Assembly: GCA_016198585.1 (NCBI GenBank) | Contig: JACQII010000016.1 | Location: 88,932-152,931, forward strand | Length of the DNA: 64,000 bases | Reading direction: 5' to 3' | Origin: Candidatus Aenigmatarchaeota archaeon | GTDB lineage: Archaea > Aenigmatarchaeota > Aenigmatarchaeia > QMZP01 | Shown: piece after piece, positions 15,390-60,272 of the stretch | Numbering within the stretch: the stretch's first letter is position 1 | Layout: each line of letters opens with the position of its first letter | Position numbers and translations under genes: made by a program | Notes under the pieces: generated by a model | What the model saw: only the letters and a program-made list of their open reading frames with translations | What the model was told of the DNA's origin: nothing | Database searches by the model: none

Positions 15390-18140
15390 ATGGACCTGCA
15401 CGCCGTCGAGAAGAAGTGGCAGCAGCGCTGGCAGGAAGCCCAGGCGTTCGTGCCGCTGCGGAAGGGGAAGAAGGTCTTCGTCACCGTGCCCTACCCCTAC
15501 ACCTCCGGGCCACTGCATATCGGCCACGCCCGGACCTACACCCTGGCCGACTTGTGGGCGCGCTACCAGCGCCTGCAGGGCAAGGCGACGCTCTTCCCGA
15601 TGGCCTTCCACATCTCCGGGACGCCGATCCTGTCCGTCGCCGACCGCATCCGCGAAGGCAGGAAAGAGACCCTCGACCTCTACCGCGACTACATCGGCAT
15701 CTATGAGCCCGACCAGAAGAAGGCCGAAGCGGTCCTCCGCTCGTTCACCGAACCCAAGGCGGTCGCCGACTTCTTCTCCCAGGTGATCGCGCGCGACTTC
15801 CAGTCCCTGGGCTTCTCGATCGACTGGACCCGGTCGTTCACGACCGGCGACCCGGCCTACAGGAAGTTCATCGCGTGGCAGTTCCTCCGCCTCCGCGACG
15901 CCGGCGTCATCACCCGCGGCTCCCATGCCGTGCAGTTCTGCACGCGGGACCAGAACGCCGTCGGCGAGGATGACATCCGCGACGGCGACCTGCTCGACAC
16001 CGGGATCGAGGCCTTCACCGCGGTCAAGTTCCCCTTCCGCGACGGCTTCCTGGTGGCCGCGACGCTGCGGCCGGAGACCCTCTTCGGCGCGACCAACCTC
16101 TGGATCAGGCCGGACGCGACCTACGTCAAGGCCCGGGTCGACGGCGAGATCTGGTACCTCTCCGCCGCGGGGTTCGCGACCCTCGGAGACCAGCACCACA
16201 CCGTCAAGGAGATTGAGCGCTTTCCAGGGAAGAAGCTCGCCGGCAGCGAGGCGCAGTCGCCCGTGGAGAAGCGGATACTGCCGGTCCTCCCCGCGGACTT
16301 CGTCGACCCCGCGTTCGCGACCGGCGTCGTCTTCTCGGTCCCTGCGCATGCGCCGGAGGACTACGTCGCGCTCCGCAACCTGGGCTTCCCGGTCGAGCCG
16401 ATCCCGGTCATCACCGTCCCCGGCTACGGCCCGGTTCCGGCCAAGGAGGTCTGCGACCAGCTCCACATCTCCAGTGCAGGCGACCGGGACCAGCTGAAGG
16501 AGGCGACCCGCATGCTCTACAAGGCCGAGTTCTACCAGGGCGTCCTCGCCCGGGCCGGGCCGTTCAGCGGGACGCCGGTGAAGGAGATCAAGGGCCAGGT
16601 CGCCGCCTGGCTGAAATCCAGGGGGAAGGCCCTGGACTTCTTCGTGCCCAAGACCCCGGACCTGGTCTGCCGCTGCGGCGCCCGCGTGGTGGTCAAGGTC
16701 CTGCCCGACCAGTGGTTCATCAACTACGGCGACCCGGCCTGGAAGGCCAAGACTCGGGCCTGCCTGAAGCAGATGGCCATCATCCCCGAGGGCAGCCGGG
16801 CATCGTTCGAGGCGGCGATCGAGTGGCTGCACGAGCGCGCCTGCGCGCGCCGCCGCGGCCTCGGAACTGCCCTCCCCTGGGACGAGCAGTGGACGATCGA
16901 GTCGCTGTCCGATTCGACCATCTACCCCGCGTTCTACCTGCTCGCTCACCTGGTTCGGGACCAGGACGCGGAGAAGCTGGTGCCGGCGGTCTTCGACTTC
17001 GCGCTCCTCGGGAAAGGAACAGCAGCGGCCGCGGCGAAAGCTTCCGGCCTTCCCCTGAAACTGCTGCAGTCCCTCCGGAAGGAATTCAGTTTCTGGTACC
17101 CGGTCGACCTGCGCCACACCGCGGTCCCGCACCTGACCAACCACCTGACCTTCTACCTCTTCACCCACGCGTTACTCTTCCCGGAGCAGCACTGGCCGAA
17201 GGCGATCTCCCTGAACGAGCTGCTCGTCCGGGACGGTCATAAGATGAGCAAATCCAAGGGGAACGTGATCCCTCTCGCCGACGTCTCCCGGCAGTACTCA
17301 GCCGACCTCTACCGCCTCTACATCGCCTCCGGCGCGGACATGAGCGCGGTGATCGACTGGACCCAGGAGGGCATCGAGACCGTGCGCAAGCGCCTGCTGG
17401 CGTTCATCGAGTTGGCGGAACGTGCTGGTTCGGGGAAGAGCCCGATGGACGCCTGGCTGCGGTCGCGCTTCCACACCATGCTGCAGGACCTCGGCCAGGA
17501 CATTGAGGGTTTCCGTTTCCGGTCGTACGCGCAACGGGCCTTCTTCGGGATGATGAACGACGTCGCGCACTTCTTCCGCCGCGGCGGGAAGGCAATCCCC
17601 GGCGACCTTCTGAAGGACTGGTTCATCGTGCTCTCGCCGCTGATCCCGCATGTCTGCGAAGAGCTCTGGGAGCGGCAAGACGGGAAAGGCCTGGTCTCCC
17701 TCGCGCGCTGGCCGCGGCCTGACCCGAAGGCCGTCGATCCCGCCCTGGAGGCCGGGGAAGACCTCGTCGGGCGGACGGTCCAGGACATCCGCGAGATCCT
17801 CAAGCTCGTCGATCGCAAGCCCGGGAAGGTCCACCTCTACGTCGCGCCGGACTGGAAGTACGTCATGCACCGCCGGATTGCGGACGGAGCAGACCTCAAG
17901 ACCCTGATGGCCGACCCCGCGATCCGTGCCCAGGGAAAGGCTGCCGCAGTCTTCTTCGAGCGCGCGAAGAAACTGCCTGCGGCTGCCGGCCCTGCCCAGG
18001 AGCTCGCGGCCCTGCACGGGGCGCGCACCTTCCTGGAGCGGGAGTTCGGCTGCCCGATCGAGGTGGTGAGCGCGCTGCAGGCCACCGGGGCCCGGGCGGC
18101 CAAAGCCGAGCCGGGCAAGCCGGGCATTGAAGTGGTCTGA
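15390..18140 (+). CDS. leuS: Leucyl-tRNA synthetase (archaeal type)
   Basis: HIGHARTY (HIGH) and KMSKSKGN (KMSKS) are present over about 916 aa. ATG 15390 lies about 28 nt after the TATA 'GAGTTTTTATCC'. The GTG at 15378 is the ORF-track start. Confidence 0.9.
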   Translation: MDLHAVEKKWQQRWQEAQAFVPLRKGKKVFVTVPYPYTSGPLHIGHARTYTLADLWARYQRLQGKATLFPMAFHISGTPILSVADRIREGRKETLDLYRDYIGIYEPDQKKAEAVLRSFTEPKAVADFFSQVIARDFQSLGFSIDWTRSFTTGDPAYRKFIAWQFLRLRDAGVITRGSHAVQFCTRDQNAVGEDDIRDGDLLDTGIEAFTAVKFPFRDGFLVAATLRPETLFGATNLWIRPDATYVKARVDGEIWYLSAAGFATLGDQHHTVKEIERFPGKKLAGSEAQSPVEKRILPVLPADFVDPAFATGVVFSVPAHAPEDYVALRNLGFPVEPIPVITVPGYGPVPAKEVCDQLHISSAGDRDQLKEATRMLYKAEFYQGVLARAGPFSGTPVKEIKGQVAAWLKSRGKALDFFVPKTPDLVCRCGARVVVKVLPDQWFINYGDPAWKAKTRACLKQMAIIPEGSRASFEAAIEWLHERACARRRGLGTALPWDEQWTIESLSDSTIYPAFYLLAHLVRDQDAEKLVPAVFDFALLGKGTAAAAAKASGLPLKLLQSLRKEFSFWYPVDLRHTAVPHLTNHLTFYLFTHALLFPEQHWPKAISLNELLVRDGHKMSKSKGNVIPLADVSRQYSADLYRLYIASGADMSAVIDWTQEGIETVRKRLLAFIELAERAGSGKSPMDAWLRSRFHTMLQDLGQDIEGFRFRSYAQRAFFGMMNDVAHFFRRGGKAIPGDLLKDWFIVLSPLIPHVCEELWERQDGKGLVSLARWPRPDPKAVDPALEAGEDLVGRTVQDIREILKLVDRKPGKVHLYVAPDWKYVMHRRIADGADLKTLMADPAIRAQGKAAAVFFERAKKLPAAAGPAQELAALHGARTFLEREFGCPIEVVSALQATGARAAKAEPGKPGIEVV

Positions 18141-18192
18141 TTGTGTGGGGGGAGCCACACACGTTTTTATGGCCGCCGGCCAATCCTTGCGC

Positions 18193-18507
18193 ATGATCAT
18201 CGCGATCCTGGGGATCATCGACCTCATCGCCGGCGGCGCCCTGATCCTCGGGCCGGCCCTCGCGCTGGAGGGGAGCAGCTTCCTCTTCTACTTCATGATC
18301 CTCTTCTTCCTGAAGGCCATCTATTCGATCCTGACGGCCGTCGCCGCGGGCTTCTACTTCGACCTGCTCGGCTACCTGGACTTCATCGCCGCGGTCTTCC
18401 TGCTGCTGCTCTTCTGGGGGATCTCACCGGCGTGGGTGTTCTGGATCGGCCTGCTGGTGATCATCAAGGGCATCTACTCGTTCGTGATCGGGTTCATCTC
18501 GACCTGA
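18193..18507 (+). CDS. Small hydrophobic membrane protein (about 104 aa)
   Basis: MIIAILGIIDLIAGGALILGPALA... has 3-4 TM helices. A TATA-like 'CGTTTTTATGG' lies about 20 nt upstream of ATG 18193. Confidence 0.45.
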   Translation: MIIAILGIIDLIAGGALILGPALALEGSSFLFYFMILFFLKAIYSILTAVAAGFYFDLLGYLDFIAAVFLLLLFWGISPAWVFWIGLLVIIKGIYSFVIGFIST

Positions 18508-18514
18508 ACCGGGC

Positions 18515-18697
18515 CTAGCCGAGCGACTGATCAATCTGGGCGAGAGCATCTTCGAGCTGGCCCACGTCGACCGAGACGTTCTGGAGGGTCTCCTGGGCTT
18601 CGTCGTCGGACTGGATCGCGTCCGGCGACGTGCAGCCGGAGACGGCCACGGTGAGCAGGAGCCCGACCAGCAGGACCAGGATCACGAGCGCGTGCAT
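18515..18697 (-). CDS. Small secreted/lipoprotein-like protein (60 aa) co-transcribed downstream of the Cys-rich giant
   Basis: MHALVILVLLVGLLLTVAVSGCTSPDAIQSDDEAQETLQNVSVDVGQLEDALAQIDQSLG has a lipobox-like VSGC. Its start lies 2 nt after the upstream gene's stop. Confidence 0.4.
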   Translation of the reverse strand: MHALVILVLLVGLLLTVAVSGCTSPDAIQSDDEAQETLQNVSVDVGQLEDALAQIDQSLG

Positions 18698-18698
18698 A

Positions 18699-21005
18699 TC
18701 AGAACCCTCCGCAGTCCGCGCACTCCGAGCATTCGCCCGGATCGCAGACCCCGTTGTTGAGGCAGCCCGAGCAGGCATTGCCGCCGCCGAAGCCCTCACC
18801 CTCGAACCCACCGCCCTCGCCAAAGCTGCCCGGAGGCGGTCCGAATCCGTCGTCCTCGAAACCCGGCGGGGGACCGAAGTCCTGGCCCTCTCCCTGGAAT
18901 CCCTGGTCGCCACCAGGACCGCCCGGTCCGTGGCCGCCGAAGATCTGGGCCAGCTTCTGGCAGAGCGGGAAATTCCCTGGCTTGAAGCACGCCTCGGCGC
19001 AGCTCTGCTGGTCCGTGCACCCGAGCTCCTGCATGATGGTCTGGGCCTCAGGAGGGGCGGCGCTCGCGAAGTTCCCGGTGCGGATCGCGTCGGCCATCGG
19101 GCCCACGCAGTTCCACTCGTCCATGGTTTGGGGGCCGGGGCCTTCCTCGCCCACCTGCATGCCCTTGGAGAAGTCGGCGATCTTGCACTCCATGGCGAAG
19201 TCCGGCTTCTCGGTCATCACCGCTTTCATGATGCAGCGACCCTGATCGTCGACGCCTTCGAGGCGGACTTCGACATTGTCGTCCGGCTGGAACGCGGCCG
19301 GTTCGCAGATGCGGAACGCCTTCTCGAAGGCCACGAAATCGTCGGTCTCCTCGACCCGTCCCTCCTCGAAGCTGCTGACGGCCTCCTCGCTCGAACTGAG
19401 CATGACATAGAGGATGTCCTTGAGGGTGACTTCCTTGAGGTGAGCGAGACCGCGCTTGAACTCCTCGATGTCTCCGGTGGTGAGGTCGTTCAGCTGCTGG
19501 CGGAGCCGGTCCTTGATCTGGTTGACCTCGTCCTTCGCATCGGTGAACATGGACGCGACCCGCCGGAAGCGGTTCTCGTCGGCCGAGCCGACCGAGGCAT
19601 AGTAGTCGGCGAGGGCGGTCGACTTCCGGGAGAGCTCGTCGATCTCCTTGATCAGCGCCTCCAGCTTGAAAGCGATCCCGAGCAAGGCAGAGGTCTCGGG
19701 AACCTTGTCGACCTTCTTGTATTCGACCCGGTTCGGATCGCCGCGGCGGATGCATTCGGAGAATGCCATGCACCCGCGGCCATCCTGCTGGACGACCAGT
19801 TCACCGCCTTCCTTCTCGCAGTGGGCATAGGCCTCCTCGGGCAGGGAACGCTGGCAGAACGGTTCCTCTTCGCAGCGCACGATCTTGCAGCCGCTGTCAT
19901 CATAATCAGGCCGGGGATAGCGCCCTTGGTCACTGCATTCTTTCGCCTCGGCCCGCACATCCTCGCACACTTGGCCGTGCTCGATGCACTTGCCGATCTT
20001 GCAGCCACCCTCGAAGACGATCTTCCCCTCGAGGCCGAGCTCGCTGCAGGCGTGCAGCTTGGTCTCGATGGCTTCGGGAGCCGGGCACTCGGGCTGCGGG
20101 CCGAAGAAACTGCGCTGCTCCTGGAAGGCGCATTCGACGATCTCACAGCCCTGGGAGTCGGTCCTAGCCTCGGGCCGGCCGCCTTCCTCCAGGCAGCGCT
20201 TCACCCGGTCGGCCGGCACAGCTGCACAGGATGACTTCTCGTTCTCGCAGAAGACGTGGGTGTAGCCGGACTCGTCCACCTGCTTGACACATTCGCCAGG
20301 CAGCGGACACTGACAGGAGCAGAAGTTGTCCTGCTTCTCGCAGGCCACCGTGCTGCCGTCCGGGCAGGAGATCTGGTCTGGGCACGAAAGAGTAGGAGGG
20401 GCGTCGCTGCACGGGCACGGACCTTTGCACTCGATGCCCGAGCCGGCCACGTCAGCCTCGCAACTGTTGCCGTAGGTCTGGCCGTTCTTGCCGCACACCG
20501 GCTCGTAGACCTCCGGGCAATCTCCTGGACAGTCGCTCAGGCAGGTTTCTTTCTCGCCGTCCTCGCAGATCCCATTCCCGCAGGCCGACGCGCTCGTTGT
20601 GGAGGTAGAGGGTGTGCAGTCGCTCGGGCACGTCTCCTTTTCGCTGTCGCTCGCGCAGATACCATCGCCGCAGGTGATCAGCGGCCCGGTCGAGGAGCCG
20701 CCGCCTGACCCGGTGTCGGAGCCGCCGCCGGAACCACCACCCGAGGATGGGCAGGAGGGCGTGCAGGACGAGCAGGTCCCGCCGCTGCAGGCGTTCTCGC
20801 AGGAGACAGTCGTCCCGTCCGCGCAGGTGATCGTCGTGGGCGAGCAGCTCACGCCCGCGCAGGGGTCAGTCGGACAGTCTGCGGGGCAGCTCTCCTTCTC
20901 GCCATCACCGCAGCTCCCGTCACCGCAGGTCTGGGCCGCGGCCAGAGTGGGAAGTGCCAGAATCAGGACTGCCGAGAGCAGGATCAGGCCGAGGGCGGCT
21001 CTCAT
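18699..21005 (-). CDS. Large secreted cysteine-rich protein with CGDGxC-type modules and a Kazal-type domain (768 aa)
   Basis: There is a signal peptide MRAALGLILLSAVLILALPTLAAA. Repeats CGDGSCGDGEKESCPADC, CGDGICASDSEKETCPSDC and CGNGICEDGEKETCLSDC occur. The Kazal signature is CPEVYEPVCGKNGQTYGNSCEADVAGSGIEC. There is a Gly/Pro-rich acidic C-terminus. Confidence 0.7.
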   Translation of the reverse strand: MRAALGLILLSAVLILALPTLAAAQTCGDGSCGDGEKESCPADCPTDPCAGVSCSPTTITCADGTTVSCENACSGGTCSSCTPSCPSSGGGSGGGSDTGSGGGSSTGPLITCGDGICASDSEKETCPSDCTPSTSTTSASACGNGICEDGEKETCLSDCPGDCPEVYEPVCGKNGQTYGNSCEADVAGSGIECKGPCPCSDAPPTLSCPDQISCPDGSTVACEKQDNFCSCQCPLPGECVKQVDESGYTHVFCENEKSSCAAVPADRVKRCLEEGGRPEARTDSQGCEIVECAFQEQRSFFGPQPECPAPEAIETKLHACSELGLEGKIVFEGGCKIGKCIEHGQVCEDVRAEAKECSDQGRYPRPDYDDSGCKIVRCEEEPFCQRSLPEEAYAHCEKEGGELVVQQDGRGCMAFSECIRRGDPNRVEYKKVDKVPETSALLGIAFKLEALIKEIDELSRKSTALADYYASVGSADENRFRRVASMFTDAKDEVNQIKDRLRQQLNDLTTGDIEEFKRGLAHLKEVTLKDILYVMLSSSEEAVSSFEEGRVEETDDFVAFEKAFRICEPAAFQPDDNVEVRLEGVDDQGRCIMKAVMTEKPDFAMECKIADFSKGMQVGEEGPGPQTMDEWNCVGPMADAIRTGNFASAAPPEAQTIMQELGCTDQQSCAEACFKPGNFPLCQKLAQIFGGHGPGGPGGDQGFQGEGQDFGPPPGFEDDGFGPPPGSFGEGGGFEGEGFGGGNACSGCLNNGVCDPGECSECADCGGF

Positions 21006-21019
21006 GCCATATACTATTG

Positions 21020-21087
21020 CCGCGTTTCCTTATATAGCCGGTGAGATCGACCCGCAGGGCATTTATGTCCTTCTGCCGAGTAAGCGC
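21020..21087. promoter_or_regulatory. Divergent promoter region with the palindromic TATA 'CTTATATAG' (21029-21038)
   Basis: It lies 24-33 nt upstream of the minus-strand ATG (21005) and about 50 nt upstream of the plus ATG 21088. Confidence 0.4.
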
Positions 21088-22407
21088 ATGACCCCGGCCC
21101 AGATCCTCGCGTACTATGCGCGGGAGGACGTGCAGCAGGCCCTGGTGGACGCGGGCCGCGACCGGGAGGTGGTGGGCGTCTTCAAGACCGGCGCCTTCGG
21201 CACGCGGCCGAACATGCTCCTCTACCCCGGCGACGTGCTCGCGCAGGCGCGCGCGGGCGCGATCGAGTTCCACTGCTCGCTCGAGCGCTGGGAACGGCCG
21301 ATGCTGCTCCAGACCGAGGAGCGGAAGGGCTTTGACCTGGTCTTCGACCTGGACGGCAAGGACGTCGAGCACGGGAAAGCAGCTGCGCAGGCGCTGGTCA
21401 CCGCTCTGGAGCGGCATGGCATCCGCCATGTCTCGGTGAAGTTCTCCGGGAACCGGGGGTTCCACCTTGGGATTCCCTGGGAGTCCATCCCCAAGGAGGT
21501 CGGCCTGGTGCCGACAGCCCGGCTGTTCCCCGATGCTGCCAGGAAGGTCTCCCTGTACCTCCGCGAGTCGATCCGCGACGACCTGACTGCGCGCCTCCTG
21601 AAGCGCTGGACAGTCGAGCAGCTGGAGGAGATCGCCGGCAGGCCGGTCGCCACCAAGGAGGGCATCGATCCGTTCAAGGTCGTCGACATCGACCCGATCC
21701 TCATCTCCCCGCGCCACCTCTACCGCATGCCCTACTCCTTGAACAAGAAGTCGTTCCTGGTCTCGCTCCCGTTGCGGGCGCGCGACCTCGAGGGGTTCGA
21801 GAAGTCCCAGGCCGACCCTGCAACGGTCCAGGTCAGCGCCCGCTTCCTGGAACGAGGGGAAGAGGGCGAGGCCGACGCGCTCTTCGCGGAAGGACTGGAC
21901 TGGTTCGCGAAACGGAAGCAGGAGCAGCGCAAGCCAGGAGGGAAGCGGACCGGCCTCACGAAGAAGGTCCCGGAATCCATGTTCCCGCCCTGCATGAAGA
22001 CCATCCTCCTCGGGATCCGGGACGGCAAACGCAGGTCCGTGTTCGCGCTGGTCAACTTCCTCTCGGCCATGAAGTGGAGCTGGGAGGACATCGAAGTCGG
22101 CCTCCTCGCGTGGAACCGCAAGAACACGCCGCCACTCCAGGAGACGTACCTCACCCAGCAGCTGCGCTACTACCGGGACAAGAAGAAGTTCCCGCCCCCG
22201 AACTGCACCCAGGAAGGCTGGTACGACGCCATGGGGGTCTGCGCGCCCGACAAGGTCTGCGTCGCCCGGGAGAACATCAAGAACCCGGTCAACTACCCGT
22301 TTCGCATCCTGCGCGCCCGGGCGCGCGACGCCCGCCAGGCCCCCAAGCGGCCCACCCGCGAGCCGCAGGGGCCGCGCGCCGAGCGGGACGAGCGCGAGCC
22401 GCTCTAG
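21088..22407 (+). CDS. priS: DNA primase small subunit PriS fused to a PriL-CTD-like Cys4 (Fe-S) domain
   Basis: The AEP motifs are LVFDLDGKD (DxD), FSGNRGFHL (SGxRGxH) and VVDIDPILISPRHLYRMPYSLNKKS. The C-terminal 130 aa carry MFPPCMKTILLG...PNCTQEGWYDAMGVCAPDKVC. 'FPPCM' and four Cys are reminiscent of the PriL 4Fe-4S domain. Confidence 0.7.
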   Translation: MTPAQILAYYAREDVQQALVDAGRDREVVGVFKTGAFGTRPNMLLYPGDVLAQARAGAIEFHCSLERWERPMLLQTEERKGFDLVFDLDGKDVEHGKAAAQALVTALERHGIRHVSVKFSGNRGFHLGIPWESIPKEVGLVPTARLFPDAARKVSLYLRESIRDDLTARLLKRWTVEQLEEIAGRPVATKEGIDPFKVVDIDPILISPRHLYRMPYSLNKKSFLVSLPLRARDLEGFEKSQADPATVQVSARFLERGEEGEADALFAEGLDWFAKRKQEQRKPGGKRTGLTKKVPESMFPPCMKTILLGIRDGKRRSVFALVNFLSAMKWSWEDIEVGLLAWNRKNTPPLQETYLTQQLRYYRDKKKFPPPNCTQEGWYDAMGVCAPDKVCVARENIKNPVNYPFRILRARARDARQAPKRPTREPQGPRAERDEREPL

Positions 22408-22450: not shown

Positions 22451-23731
22451 TCAGAGATTCCCCACGACGCGAGCAGCCTCTATCTGGTCAAGTGAAAAGT
22501 CACCTACCAAGGGCAGAGACACGACGGCATGGGTTCGCGTATCGATAATCGCCATCTTCACTGGACTACTGGTGCCGTAATAATACGCGAAGAGGGATCC
22601 ATCCTTTGACAGTGCATTGTCCTGAGACCATCCCCCCGACTGGGCTTCAAGGGGGAGGGGGAAATGCATGAACGAGCAGCTTGACACGTTGACTTCATTG
22701 AAACCGAACGAGCCTTCCGCATACGCCCGTTCACCATTCGGGCTGAAGTGGAAATAGCCGAGTTGCGTGTCAGGGATGAGCGTTTGGCAGAGTGTGGCCG
22801 CACCCTTCACCACGGTTACCATGTTGTGTGTAAGGTTCTCTACCCGGGCCATGACGAGTGTGTCCGTGCGATCACGGTGAGCGAATGTTTTGAGATAGTT
22901 GCTTCCTATGTCGATATCCGTGTACGTCAGGTTGCTATACCCGCGGCGAAGGGCAATGGTGTATGGGGGATGAAAGGAGGACTGCCCGGCGAAGCCGGAG
23001 TCCGTGATGCCCCAATAGGCGCCTGTGGTGGTCGCGGTGAGCCAGCCGATGGTGTGGAGCGTCTTGTCCGGTCCGGTCGAGAGCTCAAATCCCGCCGGTA
23101 TCTGACCGAGGGACGTGAGTGTGTCCAGGTCAATCACGTGGACCGCATTTTGGATTCCTCCTGTCAGGACGTACACCGTTGTTCCGTCCGGGGAGATGGA
23201 CATCATTGCGGACCCGGGAACGGTCAACGTGGCTGCCACGGTGTTCAGCCTAAGGGCATAGAGCAGCAAAGTCGAGGGGCTCGCGAGTGCAACGAGGTAC
23301 TTCCCATCAGGGGTGACCTCAAGCCCGATGATGGTGCCGGTGGCAGGGGGCAATGTCCCGACGAGCTGGAAGGCCCGCGTATCGATGATCGCGATTTCCC
23401 CGAACCCTTGGCTCACGTAGGCGATGTCTCGGAATGGGTGTGCCTCTACTCTGCCTATTGATCCCATGCTGGTTATTCCCGACGGAATGAAAACAGCAGA
23501 GAGGTTGGGGTCAGGATACACCACAAAGAGCCCACGCTGCCCACCCATCATTCCTGACTTGATGAAATAGGTCGGCAGATCAAATGGCGTCTTCCCCGCA
23601 AGGCCGTTGTTGGGTGAGATGCTGATGGAAGGGGGGAACATTGCGAGTGCTTTTCCCACGTGAGGGAGGGTAGACGTGACAATCAGCGCCATCGCTAAGG
23701 AGATAACGATGAATGCATAGCGGGAAACCAT
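22451..23731 (-). CDS. Membrane-anchored YVTN-type beta-propeller repeat protein
   Basis: An N-terminal anchor MVSRYAFIVISLAMALIVTS is followed by repeats such as EVTPDGKYLVALAS and ISPDGTTVYVLTGGIQNAVHVIDLDT. The GC is slightly lower than the local background. Confidence 0.6.
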   Translation of the reverse strand: MVSRYAFIVISLAMALIVTSTLPHVGKALAMFPPSISISPNNGLAGKTPFDLPTYFIKSGMMGGQRGLFVVYPDPNLSAVFIPSGITSMGSIGRVEAHPFRDIAYVSQGFGEIAIIDTRAFQLVGTLPPATGTIIGLEVTPDGKYLVALASPSTLLLYALRLNTVAATLTVPGSAMMSISPDGTTVYVLTGGIQNAVHVIDLDTLTSLGQIPAGFELSTGPDKTLHTIGWLTATTTGAYWGITDSGFAGQSSFHPPYTIALRRGYSNLTYTDIDIGSNYLKTFAHRDRTDTLVMARVENLTHNMVTVVKGAATLCQTLIPDTQLGYFHFSPNGERAYAEGSFGFNEVNVSSCSFMHFPLPLEAQSGGWSQDNALSKDGSLFAYYYGTSSPVKMAIIDTRTHAVVSLPLVGDFSLDQIEAARVVGNL

Positions 23732-25913: not shown

Positions 25914-26315
25914 CTACGTGATCTCGTCGAGCGCGCGGTTCACGAGAGCATCAGCCCGTCGGATCATCGGATGCGTGCGCACCACGTGCCGGTAGGCGAT
26001 CGACCCGAACGACCGCTCCCGTTCCTTCAGCTCGGCATGCAGCTTCTTCAGGCCCGGGTCGCGGATCCGGTACGCTCCGGTCACCTGGCGCACGACCAGC
26101 TCGCTGTCCATGGTGCAGACGACTGAACTCCCATAGCGCCGCGCGAGCTCGAGGGCCTTCAGCAGGGCCCGGTACTCGGCCTGGTTGTTCGTCGCGCGGC
26201 CGATGCGCTCCTTGTGCTCGAGGATGATGCGGTCGCCGTCGGCGATGACGACGCCGATCGCCGCTGGGCCGGGATTGCCCCGCGATCCGCCGTCCGAGTA
26301 GGAAAAGAGGGTCAC
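25914..26315 (-). CDS. rnhA: Ribonuclease HI (type 1 RNase H)
   Basis: The motifs YSDGGSRGNPGPAAIGVV, TNNQAEYRALLKALELA and DSELVVRQ are present in a 133-aa protein. Confidence 0.85.
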   Translation of the reverse strand: MTLFSYSDGGSRGNPGPAAIGVVIADGDRIILEHKERIGRATNNQAEYRALLKALELARRYGSSVVCTMDSELVVRQVTGAYRIRDPGLKKLHAELKERERSFGSIAYRHVVRTHPMIRRADALVNRALDEIT

Positions 26316-26368
26316 AGTCTTCTGTTAGTTCCGGCGGCTTTTAAGCGTCATTTTTTTCTCTGTTCTCG

Positions 26369-26833
26369 TTAGAGGTCATGAGCAATGAGGGTGTAGACGA
26401 GTATACTCTCCGCGATCGGAGGTGCCTCGCACAGGAAGCCGACATAGGGTAGGCCGCCTTCCCCGTAGATGACGCTCCGCATCGGACACTGCATTCTCTT
26501 TTCAAGGCCTTCTTCCGAGAAGGGGGTCGCCGCTTCGCCGATCACGGTTGCGGTGGTGACATAGAACGGCTCCAAGACGCGGAAGCTCGTGTTTTGCCCG
26601 TCCGGGCACCAGCCGACGTTCCCCACTCCCTCCACGAACGTGCACTCCTCTGCCGCGATGACGACGTGCAGGACCTCGGGCTGGCTATCCAGCAGCAGCT
26701 GCAGGCTCCCGATCGCGTCCCAGAGGGAGGCAAGCTGCATCCGCACCCAGCTGTCAGGGGCGGCCTGGGCCACCGAGAGCAGGCCCGCGAAGACTATGAC
26801 CACGGCGCCAAGGACGACGAAGGTCTTGTGCAT
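26369..26833 (-). CDS. Secreted hypothetical protein (signal peptide, Cys-containing)
   Basis: MHKTFVVLGAVVIVFAGLLSVAQAAP is a signal peptide. No known motifs are present. Confidence 0.4.
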   Translation of the reverse strand: MHKTFVVLGAVVIVFAGLLSVAQAAPDSWVRMQLASLWDAIGSLQLLLDSQPEVLHVVIAAEECTFVEGVGNVGWCPDGQNTSFRVLEPFYVTTATVIGEAATPFSEEGLEKRMQCPMRSVIYGEGGLPYVGFLCEAPPIAESILVYTLIAHDL

Positions 26834-26916
26834 ACTCCTCCTGGGAAACTGGATTTAAAAGCCTGGATGTCAGAGGGGAGGGGCAATGGTTTTAATTCTT
26901 TAAGCCAATTGTTGGC

Positions 26917-28179
26917 ATGGTCGTAAGTAGTAATAAGCACCTCTGGACTTTACCTATCTTGTTCTTCTTTCTAGTAATACCAACCGCACAAGGAAGTTGG
27001 GTTGGTGTTCATCCTTCTGGGAATTTTAGTGTCGATTTTCCGTTCTGGGAAGCGGTCAGAATAGTACAGTGGAAGGATGAAAGCACTCTAGACAGGACCA
27101 ATTATCAAGATTTGTTGGTTGCTGCAGAATTCGAACTACAAATTAATAGGAACTTATCAGGAGGGAAGGTAAACATAACATATTACACGTTGGAGGCTTC
27201 AAGGAATAATGACGCTACTAATTTTATATCCAAGGTCTGCAGCGACAGATATTGCAATCATACCATTTTTTCTGGGAGTTCAGTATCGATAGGCAGCAAT
27301 ATCTTTACATTTACTCTGCCTATACCTGAGCTGGAATCAGACACCGTTTTTAATGTTTTCATTGAGTACAGAATTCCTAATTTTATCGAGAAGAAAGGAA
27401 TATACTATGTAGCAAAGTTTAACGCCGTGTGCCAGACTATCGATTTCTGCCCACCTGAGCATACGATGATGCGAACATTCATAATACCATACGAAGATAC
27501 AATCATAGAGAAATTGATACCCGAGAGTATCGAGTCGGCTACCTTTCATGAGAAAGATGAGCAGTACCTGACATTTTCAGAAAGTTATAAAGAGATATGG
27601 TTTTCAAGAATCTCAGAAACCAATTTTTGGTTGCCTTTCCTTTGGCAGTTCTTGGGGGCAGTATTGGGCGCCTTTCTAGCTATTTTGGCAGCCGAAAGTT
27701 GGAAATTCGTTAGAAGAAGAGGATCAAAGATACCGCAGGAGAAAGTCGCAAGAAAGAGTACAGATATGAGAAATCCGAGGGTTAGTAGAAACGACGATAA
27801 ACGTTTTTTGATAAAAGTATATCAGAATAATAGAGATTATCACGCAACGATGGCAACTCAAGGTCTTACAATACTACTTACACTTGCAACATTAATTGTT
27901 GCCATTCTTACTCTCATCAATGTTGCTTATTCATCTGTCGTTAGCCCATGGCTAAGCACATGGTTCCCTATCATGAATCTTGTCATCGTTGCTGCCATTA
28001 TAATAACTTGGATATATGTCTACAAGGTCAGAATTTCGCCTGATAAACGGAGTGCATCGAACTTTCATCTACAGTATAAAATATTTTTATCAGAACTCTA
28101 CCCTCGTCTTTTTCAGCTGTCAGAGAATGACAACAAAAGGATATATGACAGGGAGTTGCGAAAAAAACCAAACTTCTAA
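26917..28179 (+). CDS. Low-GC (~38-40% GC) membrane/secreted hypothetical protein (420 aa)
   Basis: A signal peptide TLPILFFFLVIPTAQG is present with internal TM helices and many N-x-S/T sequons. The composition contrasts strongly with the ~63% GC background. The gene ends 62 nt from the tRNA-Gly 3' end. Confidence 0.5.
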   Translation: MVVSSNKHLWTLPILFFFLVIPTAQGSWVGVHPSGNFSVDFPFWEAVRIVQWKDESTLDRTNYQDLLVAAEFELQINRNLSGGKVNITYYTLEASRNNDATNFISKVCSDRYCNHTIFSGSSVSIGSNIFTFTLPIPELESDTVFNVFIEYRIPNFIEKKGIYYVAKFNAVCQTIDFCPPEHTMMRTFIIPYEDTIIEKLIPESIESATFHEKDEQYLTFSESYKEIWFSRISETNFWLPFLWQFLGAVLGAFLAILAAESWKFVRRRGSKIPQEKVARKSTDMRNPRVSRNDDKRFLIKVYQNNRDYHATMATQGLTILLTLATLIVAILTLINVAYSSVVSPWLSTWFPIMNLVIVAAIIITWIYVYKVRISPDKRSASNFHLQYKIFLSELYPRLFQLSENDNKRIYDRELRKKPNF

Positions 28180-28240: not shown

Positions 28241-28354
28241 TGCGTCGGGCGAGAGTCGAACTCGCGTTACAGCCTATTTGCCCGGCGTTTCTGGGTGCAG
28301 CCTCTTTTGAAGAGGTGCTGGCAAGGCCGCGTACTACCACTATACTACCGACGC
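28241..28354 (-). tRNA. tRNA-Gly(GCC) with a 43-nt intron after position 37
   Basis: The acceptor stem is GCGTCGG/CCGACGC. The D-arm is GTAT-AGTGGTA-GTAC. The anticodon stem CGGCC/GGCTG has the loop TTGCCA with anticodon GCC. The T-arm is GCGAG-TTCGACT-CTCGC. The discriminator is A, and CCA is not encoded. The 43-nt insertion 3' of the anticodon matches the canonical archaeal intron position. Confidence 0.7.
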
Positions 28355-57913: not shown

Positions 57914-58849
57914 TCAGAGGGGCATGAGGTCGATCGAGACGTCCTCGAAGATGGGGATGATCTCGTAGTTGTCTATGAGGTCGAACTTGTCCCGCAGGTC
58001 GATGATGAGCTGCTGCAGACTCTCATTGTCCTCTATCCGCACGTGCACCAGGAGGTTCCATACGCCGAACATCCTGACTGCCTGCGTGACCGATTCAGTC
58101 CTTTCGAGGTAGTGGATCAGCTTGTTCTCTCTTTCCTTCGCATAGTCCTTGAAGGAGAAGAGAACGAGGAAGGGCTTCCTATCTTCCGTTCTCATGAACA
58201 TCCGATAGCCGAGGATGACATTCGCCCTTTCCATCGCCTTGACCCTATTTATGATCGTCTTGTAGGATACCTGTTTTTCGCGGGAGATCTCCAAGGACGA
58301 TAATCTGCAATTCTCCTTCAGCTTGCTGAGGATGAAATGGTCGAGGCCATCGATATCTGTATGCTTATCCTGGTATCCGTAGGTCATGGTGTGGTAGTCT
58401 TTGCTGAGAAATTTGTGCCGGTAGACGTAATGATTCAAACCATAGCAACTGGTATAGTTCTTGACCAGCCCGGGAAATCGTGCATTGAACTTTTCCATGA
58501 AGTTGTCGAATGCCGCAAAGTCGAAGACGAATAGCACGACGTGCAGATCGTATGCGCCACCAGTCCGCGCGGACCAGTAGACCCCTTTCTGGCCGCCCAG
58601 GTAGTCAAAGACCTCCTTGCTGGAGTAGGTGCTCGAATTGAACGTGAAAAACACCCTGTAGTGTTCCTGCTTCAGGGCCTTGAGGTTGATGATGGCTCCT
58701 ATTTTCGTGATGCGTTTCTCGACGATCATCCTCCTTATCCGGTAGTCTGCAACCTGCTGGGAAATGCGTAACTTTCTCGCGAGCTTTGCGACCGGCGTTC
58801 GCGGATGGGAGTCCAGTTCAGCCAGAATCTTCGTATCAATTCTGTCCAT
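57914..58849 (-). CDS. Tandem-duplicated Lrp/AsnC-family transcriptional regulator (two HTH_AsnC + RAM-like modules), low-GC
   Basis: HTH 1 is MDRIDTKILAELDSHPRTPVAKLARKLRISQQVADYRIRRM. HTH 2 is LDHFILSKLKENCRLSSLEISREKQVSYKTIINRVKAMERANVILGY. There is a RAM-like C-terminus. GC is about 45%. Confidence 0.6.
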   Translation of the reverse strand: MDRIDTKILAELDSHPRTPVAKLARKLRISQQVADYRIRRMIVEKRITKIGAIINLKALKQEHYRVFFTFNSSTYSSKEVFDYLGGQKGVYWSARTGGAYDLHVVLFVFDFAAFDNFMEKFNARFPGLVKNYTSCYGLNHYVYRHKFLSKDYHTMTYGYQDKHTDIDGLDHFILSKLKENCRLSSLEISREKQVSYKTIINRVKAMERANVILGYRMFMRTEDRKPFLVLFSFKDYAKERENKLIHYLERTESVTQAVRMFGVWNLLVHVRIEDNESLQQLIIDLRDKFDLIDNYEIIPIFEDVSIDLMPL

Positions 58850-58940
58850 GCATGAGTTGGAATATTTTTCTTTAAAAAGGTTCTTATATACAAAAATAGA
58901 GACCCTACATTCCTATAAAATAGGAACGCCTATTCTGGAC

Positions 58941-59597
58941 ATGAGAATCAGGGTTCAAAACGTGGAATATGAATTGGGCGGCGGGGATGTACGATCGGGT
59001 GGGGTTGTACGACCGTTTAGGGTGAGTTTTGACACAGGAGACCGATATTTCCGTCTGAAATTATCTGCCACAGGCTCTCTCTACGTCAATAATGAAGGCC
59101 GGTTCTCAGATAAAAGAAAGGGCAAAATGCGGTACAGCGATGATCCAGGATTGAACGATGGTAGTCTCCTCTCAAACCCTTATTTGGAACTAAAGCTCTC
59201 TGATTTCTCCCCACACGAAGAGATGACCGCACACTGGAAGAGTGTTCGTTCACACTTTGTGGAAGATAAGGACTCCTCAGAACCGATACGTGGAAAGTCT
59301 CTTGACAGAAGATTCCCCTCTGAAGGATGTCTCTATGTCGATGGGCATCCATGGGAACAGCACTACAAGCATGGCAGGCATCATTATTATCTAAGAAAGG
59401 ACGGGCTACTGATCGAGGATACAAAGACGATACAGCTTCTGGAAAGAGAGCAGCCTGAGACTGTTCTGGAACTGATGAAATTCATAGCGGCGGCGAGACC
59501 TCCGCGGGAGGCTCTGGAGTCCATTCGTATGAGGAGATGGAAGATGTCGAGCGCTGAGACTTTGAGTCTAGGAGTGGGGAGCAGGCTGGTGTCGTGA
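58941..59597 (+). CDS. Hypothetical protein, paralog A of a tandem pair (218 aa)
   Basis: MRIRVQNVEYELGGGDVR...NPYLELKLSDFSPHEEMTAHW...RFPSEGCLYVDGHPWEQHYKHGRHHYYL...QPETVLELMKFIAAARPPREALES. No family is recognised. AT-rich TATA-like boxes lie upstream ('TTCTTATATACA' and 'CCTATAAAATAGG'). Confidence 0.5.
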   Translation: MRIRVQNVEYELGGGDVRSGGVVRPFRVSFDTGDRYFRLKLSATGSLYVNNEGRFSDKRKGKMRYSDDPGLNDGSLLSNPYLELKLSDFSPHEEMTAHWKSVRSHFVEDKDSSEPIRGKSLDRRFPSEGCLYVDGHPWEQHYKHGRHHYYLRKDGLLIEDTKTIQLLEREQPETVLELMKFIAAARPPREALESIRMRRWKMSSAETLSLGVGSRLVS

Positions 59598-59603
59598 TAT
59601 CCT

Positions 59604-60272
59604 ATGCAAATCAGAGTTCAGAATGTCGATTATGAATTGAGCGGCGGGATCGTAAGGCCGTCGAGGGTCCACCTTCATGTCGGTGGATTGTATCAATTCA
59701 GCATGAGTCTGACCGGAGACGGTTCACTACATGTAAACAATGGACACCTCATCCCAAAGAAGAGGAAGGGCGAGATACAGTTTGACGACCAGGACTGGAA
59801 TGACGGCAGAGGCTTCATGTGCAACCCGTACCTTGAGCTGCAGCTGTCTGACCTGCCTCCGTTTGAAGAGGTGATTGAACATTGGAGAACCGTTCGCCCA
59901 CACTTCCTAGAGCGGAGACCCTACGGCGTTCCTATGGGTGGCCATATCTCAACAACGTACACCTATCCGGACGGGAGGAGTGTCAGGCGCGACGCAAAAG
60001 GGGACCCGACGAAGCTGATCAGAGGGAGGCCATTTGACACGAGATTCCCCTCCGACGGATGCACGTACATAGAAGGCCATCCGTTTGAACAGCACTACCG
60101 GCACGGCAGGCACGATTACTATCTGGAAAAGGGATCGGTGATGGTCGAGGACGAGAGAACGATCCAAGATCTGGAAGGGGAGCAGCCGGAGGCTGTCCTG
60201 GAGCTGTTGAAGTTCATCTCGTCGGCAAAGACTCCCCGCGAGGCCCTCGAATCGTTCGTTGTTCCGCGCTAG
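59604..60272 (+). CDS. Hypothetical protein, paralog B of the tandem pair (222 aa)
   Basis: MQIRVQNVDYELSGGIVR...NPYLELQLSDLPPFEEVIEHW...RFPSDGCTYIEGHPFEQHYRHGRHDYYL...QPEAVLELLKFISSAKTPREALES. It is about 50% identical to paralog A and starts 7 nt after it. Confidence 0.5.
   Translation: MQIRVQNVDYELSGGIVRPSRVHLHVGGLYQFSMSLTGDGSLHVNNGHLIPKKRKGEIQFDDQDWNDGRGFMCNPYLELQLSDLPPFEEVIEHWRTVRPHFLERRPYGVPMGGHISTTYTYPDGRSVRRDAKGDPTKLIRGRPFDTRFPSDGCTYIEGHPFEQHYRHGRHDYYLEKGSVMVEDERTIQDLEGEQPEAVLELLKFISSAKTPREALESFVVPR

Follow-up and report, generated by a model that had tools for sequence, protein, structure and literature searches.

What function can be assigned to a secreted archaeal protein of 768 amino acids (aa) with 64 cysteines, and to the 60-aa protein encoded directly behind it? 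The question is raised by one locus in a 64,000-nucleotide (nt) stretch from a Candidatus Aenigmatarchaeota archaeon (assembly GCA_016198585.1, contig JACQII010000016.1, positions 88,932 to 152,931), here called the window, whose own numbering is used throughout. Aenigmatarchaeota are tiny, uncultivated DPANN archaea, and to our knowledge nothing is known about their cell surface. An initial annotation, made from the letters of this stretch, had described the larger gene as encoding a cysteine-rich secreted protein with a textbook Kazal-type serine protease inhibitor domain and the smaller one as encoding a co-transcribed lipoprotein. Our analysis confirms the observation and supports its interpretation in part. 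It delineates a protein family, at least 275 cluster representatives strong, for which Pfam and NCBIfam have no model and PDB and BFVD no match, and it identifies a conserved, tightly coupled gene pair as a concrete candidate for the envelope or host-contact apparatus of Aenigmatarchaeota. In the reading put forward here, for which we see an even chance, the two genes would encode a two-subunit cell-surface complex characteristic of this phylum, with the small protein tethering the large one.

A secreted cysteine-rich protein family

The large gene lies on the minus strand (18699-21005, stop codon included), and cysteine makes up 8.3% of its product. The window has a G+C content of 64%, and the strand opposite the gene carries long overlapping shadow open reading frames (ORFs; 18630-20234 and 20599-22407). 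Homologues with E-values of 1e-150 or below align over the whole 768-aa frame, signal peptide and C-terminal end included; comparable homology support was not found for the two opposite ORFs. Homology thus identifies ORF 18699-21005 as the genuine gene, as opposed to a shadow frame of GC-rich DNA. Its product begins with the hydrophobic stretch MRAALGLILLSAVLILALPTLAAA ahead of QT, which is typical of a Sec signal; the signal peptide (aa 1-24, 20934-21005) comprises an h-region followed by AAA/Q, with the cleavage site predicted. All complete family members start with the same kind of N-terminal signal, and no further transmembrane-like hydrophobic segment was found in the window protein or in the complete large proteins.

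The N-terminal part of the protein is modular. Three four-cysteine units share the pattern CG[DN]GxC...E[KT]xC..DC, two of the CGDGxC type (aa 27-44, 20874-20927; aa 112-130, 20616-20672) and one of the CGNGxC type (aa 142-159, 20529-20582). No Pfam model matches the first of them in the window protein, and in one relative (P0002) the CGDGxC-type unit is repeated many times. Between the first and second units lies another cysteine module, DPCAGVSC...TPSCPS (aa 47-87, 20745-20867), which aligns across most family members, with C69, C73 and C78 nearly invariant. Gly/Ser and Ser/Thr linkers, a helical segment (aa ~436-536) and a tail rich in Gly, Pro and acidic residues (aa 691-744) complete the layout, together with a C-terminal six-cysteine motif, CSGCLNNGVCDPGECSECADC (aa 745-765, 18711-18773). 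The latter is nearly invariant where present and closes about half of the family members; the others stop after an alpha/beta domain or run into other sequence. Every element of this architecture that the initial annotation had listed is thus present, as are the secretion signal and the high cysteine content.

A profile search run exhaustively against 1.84 billion cluster representatives returned 1159 matches at E <= 1e-3, of which 275 reach E <= 1e-30. Most matches span the same central region; the stricter threshold is the basis for the minimum family size given above. Word-indexed protein searches were saturated by low-complexity candidates and yielded 14-26 relatives only, so that the size of the family became visible through the exhaustive search. 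The homologues are 730-1500 aa long, come from metagenome-assembled genomes and contain 4-11% cysteine. A scan of GTDB species representatives located 48 loci, most labelled Candidatus Aenigmatarchaeota and the remainder carrying generic archaeon labels, plus one labelled Woesearchaeota. Widespread homologues of annotated function would, by the initial annotation, have counted against its finding: widespread they are, within one archaeal phylum, but none of them bears a functional name. The family is undescribed in the libraries searched (Pfam, NCBIfam, PDB and BFVD), and a literature search on Aenigmarchaeota with cysteine-rich, S-layer or surface proteins found no description of it. A poxvirus entry-protein paper that mentions Aenigmarchaeota proved to be unrelated.

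In two members, P0158 (locus L005) and P0114, a DsbA or thioredoxin domain replaces the six-cysteine motif at the C-terminus, so that a disulfide-rich surface protein is fused to a thiol-disulfide oxidoreductase, which argues that the cysteines of the family form disulfides outside the cell. Archaeon GW2011_AR5 (L003/L021) has the entire cassette twice in tandem, first as 967 aa + 61 aa and second as 1012 aa + 61 aa. A PEGA domain and 21-23 N-x-S/T sequons are found in the first of them, compared with 0-8 sequons in other members.

The small partner gene

The ATG of the small gene (18515-18697, minus strand) opens on the second base behind the TGA of the large gene, with one nucleotide in between and a GGAGG 10 nt upstream. 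Its 60-aa product begins MHALVILVLLVGLLLTVAVSGC... and consists of a hydrophobic N-terminal helix, the lipobox AVSG/C and a 38-aa acidic ectodomain ending in IDQSLG. Using a hidden Markov model built from six small proteins, homologues were searched for downstream of the large genes. With the exception of locus L013, a small gene follows directly on the same strand in every locus in which the 3' end of the large gene and downstream DNA are present, and both tandem copies in GW2011_AR5 have their own. The distance from stop to start has a median of 4 nt and is 20 nt or less in 36 of 42 pairs, 11 of which overlap; a Shine-Dalgarno-like GGAGG or GGTGA often lies within the last codons of the large gene. 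The small gene noted in the initial annotation is therefore real, and it is a conserved, tightly coupled partner of the large gene.

Whether the small protein is a lipoprotein has a less uniform answer. The window protein, with ...LTVAVSG/C, matches the lipobox pattern [LVI][ASTVI][GAS]C, and a lipobox-like [SGA]GC occurs in 32-33 of 47 distinct small proteins. The lipobox cysteine is not conserved throughout these 47 orthologues: 14 have no cysteine at all and keep a plain transmembrane helix. As an N-terminal hydrophobic helix is found in all small proteins, these 14 included, the conserved trait is membrane anchoring and not lipidation, and lipidation would be lineage-specific. Lipoproteins and the lipidation enzyme AliA (arCOG02177) have been predicted in DPANN archaea, AliA with gaps (PMC12462473), which makes lipidation plausible where the cysteine exists. 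A link between loss of the lipobox and loss of the C-terminal cysteine motif of the large protein was considered and dropped, as the two lists, compared by eye, showed no correlation.

Conservation extends into the ectodomain. The C-terminal ~35 residues follow the consensus IKSxEE..AVTNVSxDVxxVxxxLxDIDxxLG, the mean net charge is -4.8, and the helix of the window protein shows a perfect four-heptad a/d pattern (A12, L16, V19, V23, L26, L30, I33, L37).

In gene order, with a lipobox protein of ~60 aa behind a large exported one, the pair recalls a colicin with its bacteriocin-release protein, and the small protein has weak matches to Rz-like spanins as well as Lpp/YgdI lipoproteins. It is nonetheless highly improbable that the large protein is a secreted toxin or bacteriocin-like effector and the small one its release, lysis or immunity factor, in the style of a colicin operon. 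The spanin and Lpp matches are sub-threshold and far below the cut-offs, Pfam scans detected no toxin or enzymatic domain, the large protein bears its own Sec signal, and searches with PADLOC and PHROGs gave nothing above noise. The pair is moreover conserved phylum-wide, and its surroundings are syntenic housekeeping regions, not islands. Clustering of neighbours at 50 loci found a PCMT-like methyltransferase (17 loci), TatD (13) and a helix-turn-helix regulator (9) as recurrent neighbours, all of them housekeeping genes, and no third gene consistently linked to the pair; primase, LeuRS and ribosomal proteins also belong to the family's context. Given 48 loci, at least 275 representatives and this housekeeping context, a core role in the envelope would be favoured over that of an accessory toxin.

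A conserved core without known relatives

The part that defines the family is a core of some 440 aa (window aa ~205-645, 19071-20393), delimited by family alignments and an AlphaFold model; the N-terminal third varies in the type and number of its modules. The core model (aa 205-690, alignment of 33 sequences) reached a mean predicted local distance difference test score (pLDDT) of 83 and a predicted template modelling score (pTM) of 0.61, whereas the full-length model (pLDDT 60, pTM 0.26) is too poor to be used for the N-terminal half. Five parts are predicted. Short cysteine-knotted beta units are followed by four helix plus beta-hairpin repeats (aa 260-420), each with four cysteines in the pattern C-x(9-12)-C-x(14-15)-C-x(4-5)-C. 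Next comes a three-helix bundle (aa 436-536, 19398-19700), whose helices, 34, 28 and 27 residues long, have a pLDDT of about 90 or above, and then an alpha/beta domain of one helix and four strands, succeeded by a small helical cysteine domain. The bundle is the most conserved of these, with a mean top-residue frequency of 0.67 versus 0.44-0.54 (excluding cysteines) in the other core domains.

The core has no relative in Pfam, NCBIfam, PDB or BFVD. Pfam searches with 43 cores gave no family match to the core itself (one member gave a Kazal match), and whole-protein scans against Pfam and NCBIfam likewise found no model for it. A PDB sequence-profile search with the core alignment retrieved only designed coiled coils at E > 0.06, and Foldseek searches of the core model against PDB and BFVD returned nothing at E <= 1e-3.

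Four observations meet here: an exported large protein without an anchor, an anchored small helix, the coupling of the two genes and the conserved bundle. On these grounds a tether formed by four-helix docking is the simplest model. The large protein would be exported by Sec, lose its signal peptide and then have no membrane anchor of its own; outside the cell it would fold as a chain of small modules, presumably stabilised by disulfides. The small protein, probably made from the same transcript by translational coupling, would be held in the membrane by its lipid-modified cysteine or, in some lineages, by an uncleaved transmembrane helix, and would display an acidic amphipathic helix of four heptads and about 30 residues. 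This helix may pack on the three-helix bundle of the large protein, whose helices match it in length in the model, and so hold the large protein on the cell. In this arrangement the conserved core would lie near the membrane, with the variable N-terminal modules (CGDGxC, Kazal, antistasin-like and others) facing outward.

Two known systems work on a comparable principle. In the Sulfolobales SlaA/SlaB pair, the genes also lie side by side, one for a large outer subunit that lacks an anchor and one for a small coiled-coil subunit held in the membrane; in contrast to the proteins studied here, SlaB is anchored at its C-terminus and is much larger, the present archaeal family is cysteine-rich, and similarity in sequence or fold was not found. 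Braun's lipoprotein Lpp/OprI resembles the small protein in its length of ~60 aa, its lipobox and its short helix of heptad repeats, which serves to tether a further layer of the envelope. Here the context is archaeal, one third of the small orthologues lack the lipobox cysteine, the C-terminus reads ...IDxxLG instead of ending in Lys, and the window protein scores 15.1 bits against the Lpp/OprI model NF040598, for which the NCBIfam cut-off is 43. The resemblance to SlaA/SlaB and to the Lpp tether would accordingly be one of working principle; by Pfam, NCBIfam and Foldseek the pair is homologous to neither.

As a special case of the tethered complex, the large protein could form the S-layer lattice of Aenigmatarchaeota, with the small protein as stalk or anchor by analogy to SlaA/SlaB. 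The anchorless secreted subunit beside a small anchored coiled coil, the occurrence across the phylum in a housekeeping context, and a conserved membrane-proximal part combined with a variable distal part would all suit a lattice protein. S-layer proteins are, however, typically poor in cysteine, far from the 4-11% of this family; most members have few or no glycosylation sequons, and similarity to known S-layer families was found neither in Pfam and NCBIfam nor among PDB folds at E <= 1e-3. We therefore regard a true S-layer as unlikely.

The same helices also invite a more dynamic interpretation. DPANN archaea are commonly episymbionts, and in a host-contact or membrane-fusion device the bundle and the anchored helix would rearrange as in a fusogen or a zipper of SNARE type, with the outer modules binding the host. 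A conserved helical bundle paired with a membrane-anchored heptad helix would fit such a machine, as would outer modules that vary as expected for host-specific adhesion. Against this, the large proteins show no hydrophobic segment resembling a fusion peptide, and Foldseek searches of PDB and BFVD turned up nothing structurally similar to fusogens of class I, II or III or to viral proteins. A host-contact or fusion device of this kind is very unlikely, and docking of the small helix on the bundle is the model retained here.

The Kazal-like module

Directly N-terminal of the conserved core lies the segment that had been called a textbook Kazal domain (aa 159-199, 20409-20531), containing the string CPEVYEPVCGKNGQTYGNSCEADVAGSGIEC at aa 163-193. 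When aa 155-202 are excised and searched alone against the Kazal models of Pfam (PF00050/PF07648), Kazal_1 is matched with 30.1 bits (gathering threshold 21) and Kazal_2 with 25.5 bits (threshold 22.8); the match spans only profile positions 8-28 of 49. In the whole-protein Pfam scan no Kazal match appeared at E <= 1, presumably because the cysteine-rich context lowers the score, and NCBIfam gave nothing useful either. A PDB sequence search with the segment is more telling: the best 60 of 71 matches at E <= 10 are all Kazal domains, led by SPI-1 (E = 1.6e-9) and by LDTI, a tryptase inhibitor from leech (E = 8.6e-8), and including RECK, rhodniin, ovomucoid, PSTI and agrin.

SPI-1 (PDB 3qtl) and LDTI (PDB 1an1/1ldt) are non-classical Kazal inhibitors (MEROPS I1), and the alignment with LDTI runs over 37 residues without a gap, CPEVYEPVCGKNGQTYGNSC...GPC on the side of the window protein and a sequence ending in GSC on that of LDTI. 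It places C163, C171, C182 and C197 at the canonical positions C2, C3, C4 and C6. The aromatic residue at P2', Pro-Val before C3 and the spacer Asn are all kept. The loop scaffold C2-x-P1-x-aromatic-x-P-V/L-C3-G and the spacer Asn before C4 are both present, as CPEVYEPVCG...TYGNSC; we equate CPEVYEPVCG with the reactive-site loop, and the Asn of TYGNSC with the spacer Asn, of ovomucoid (OMTKY3) and LDTI, a correspondence that makes Glu165 the predicted P1 residue. The module departs from LDTI in three ways: Val186 stands at the position of C5, C193 is an extra cysteine without LDTI counterpart, and P1 is Glu. Of the two additional cysteines in the region, at 193 and 199, Cys193 probably re-pairs with C159. 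Canonical Kazal domains pair their six cysteines as 1-5, 2-4 and 3-6; with four positions in register and C5 replaced, the pattern here looks like that of a derived Kazal module, in which the pairing would be altered.

The relatives place this aberration in an evolutionary frame. A pattern scan found Kazal-like modules in 21 of 164 family proteins, the window protein included (27 matches with the inclusion of five locus translations redundant with listed proteins). A canonical six-cysteine module of the LDTI type (C-x-C...C...C-x3-C...C) is present in P0086, P0156, P0134, P0114, P0020/L006, L012 and L013, at the same position as the module in the window. C1 and C5 are jointly lost in P0025, P0040 and P0046, while in the subgroup of the window protein (P0002, P0032, P0035, P0045 and P0049) C5 is lost and a cysteine gained in the following strand. 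Five relatives (P0046, P0086, P0156, P0075 and P0049) pass the Kazal thresholds even in whole-protein Pfam scans, and the CPEVYEPVCG loop of P0049 is identical to that of the window protein. With canonical and variant modules side by side among its relatives, the module in the window can be understood as a derived Kazal domain, slightly aberrant and, on the evidence of its sequence, homologous to the Kazal family; the epithet "textbook" goes too far. The family also offers a natural series of disulfide changes at one orthologous position: six cysteines, four cysteines, and a shifted fifth cysteine.

A survey of archaeal folds listed Kazal among the DPANN-unique, mostly singleton groups and considered gene transfer or artefact as possible origins (PMC13607799). 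The present family shows, on the point left open there, that Kazal modules recur and evolve as building blocks in DPANN archaea and are more than isolated errors of annotation.

Could protease inhibition then be the main task of the large protein, with the small lipoprotein an incidental co-transcribed gene? The significant match of the excised segment to Kazal profiles and to solved Kazal inhibitors speaks for it, as does the scaffold, which is fixed across all 27 modules while P1 is hypervariable (E, D, T, A, L, R, Q), as in real inhibitors. One relative also contains an antistasin module, another inhibitor fold, and others have matches of RET-CRD type. The Kazal module is, however, an accessory, recurrent element of the family, and since only a minority of members has it, the large protein is not primarily a protease inhibitor; what is conserved is the 440-aa core and the small partner. 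An acidic P1 would suit few known target proteases, C5 is missing, the whole-protein scan has no Kazal match, and the structure model has low confidence in this region (see below). Kazal modules of agrin, follistatin and RECK are structural and non-inhibitory. Together these points make inhibition as the main task quite unlikely.

The comparison with such mosaic proteins is instructive in its own right. In agrin, RECK, follistatin and SPARC, Kazal or follistatin modules likewise form chains with linkers and other small modules rich in disulfides, all within one large secreted protein; these proteins are eukaryotic, and their homology to the window protein is confined to the Kazal module. LDTI, by contrast, is a free inhibitor, whereas the module studied here is embedded in a 768-aa surface protein, where any inhibitory activity would be putative. 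Within the tethered complex, the Kazal module with Glu165 at P1 would most likely act as an outward protease-binding or protease-shielding unit and not as the main purpose of the protein.

Several findings weigh against the tethered surface complex or its details. At locus L013 (metagenome-assembled genome CSMAG_2771), which has a canonical six-cysteine Kazal module, no small gene was detected downstream. High cysteine content is unusual for archaeal S-layer proteins, and the large protein in the window has no N-x-S/T sequon. The 42 gene pairs are too few for a covariation test, and physical interaction, like the docking site, is a proposal. The pattern-based genome scan sets a lower bound on the distribution and is not proof of universality within the phylum. 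As to the module itself, AlphaFold assigned a pLDDT below 50 to aa 155-205 (13-sequence alignment), where the Kazal fold of a short helix against a small beta-sheet would be expected, the canonical C5 is absent, and Glu at P1 fits subtilisin-, trypsin- and chymotrypsin-like targets poorly. Apart from L013, CSMAG_2771 also holds a second, partial copy of the large gene that is accompanied by a small gene (L033).

Kazal, antistasin and RET-CRD-like modules are otherwise typical of animals. In its most far-reaching form, the interpretation would make the pair the main envelope or host-interface structure of Aenigmatarchaeota: a disulfide-cross-linked coat resembling an extracellular matrix, held by an Lpp-like anchor docked to a novel fold, with Kazal tips of hypervariable P1 that neutralise surface proteases of hosts or competitors in episymbiosis. 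In this extended form the idea is speculative and, taken as a whole, improbable. In its simpler form, a two-gene surface cassette that recurs through the phylum would provide a lead into the cell surface of DPANN archaea.

Surroundings of the locus

The large gene shares an 82-bp divergent intergenic spacer (21006-21087) with a 439-aa primase gene on the plus strand (21088-22407). The initial annotation had named this neighbour as a primase and placed both genes on a shared TATA element. The primase assignment holds: the product matches the Prim-Pol/PriS models and the PriL model (DNA_primase_lrg) of Pfam and looks like a fused PriS-PriL primase. Fusions of this kind have been reported for some DPANN archaea. 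TTATATA at 21030-21036, about 28 nt upstream of the ATG of the large gene, is a plausible common promoter element for both genes, and from this distance a leaderless or nearly leaderless transcript may be expected. The divergent arrangement recurs in the closest relatives, L001 and L054.

The latter, a Logan contig (SRR12113383) identical to the window, illustrates an annotation trap. Its automatic call shortens the large gene to 599 aa, beginning at Val170 within the Kazal module, and extends the primase on the opposite strand to 597 aa over the true N-terminus; the miscalled region corresponds to 20497-21005. Owing to this truncation, the database protein P0001 lacks the signal peptide and half of the Kazal module. 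In a GC-rich genome, automatic gene calling thus cut the large gene through the very module of interest and over-extended its neighbour.

Convergent to the small gene lies an ORF for a 126-aa multi-pass membrane protein (18127-18507, plus strand) without family match; an ORF of similar size occupies this place in L001 and L054, but not in the wider family. Just past the primase, a 426-aa protein (22451-23731, minus strand) has an N-terminal hydrophobic segment and weak beta-propeller matches and is a further surface-protein candidate. Two stretches of the window (26001-28000 and 58001-60000) have a G+C content of about 50%, compared with about 64% elsewhere, and may be foreign islands. ORFs of 420 aa (26917-28179) and 277 aa (58764-59597) are without Pfam match, and ORF 57914-58849 encodes a double Lrp/AsnC-type regulator. 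Finally, Rfam identified a 114-nt tRNA (28241-28354, minus strand; 53 bits), probably an intron-containing archaeal tRNA, which ARAGORN had missed.

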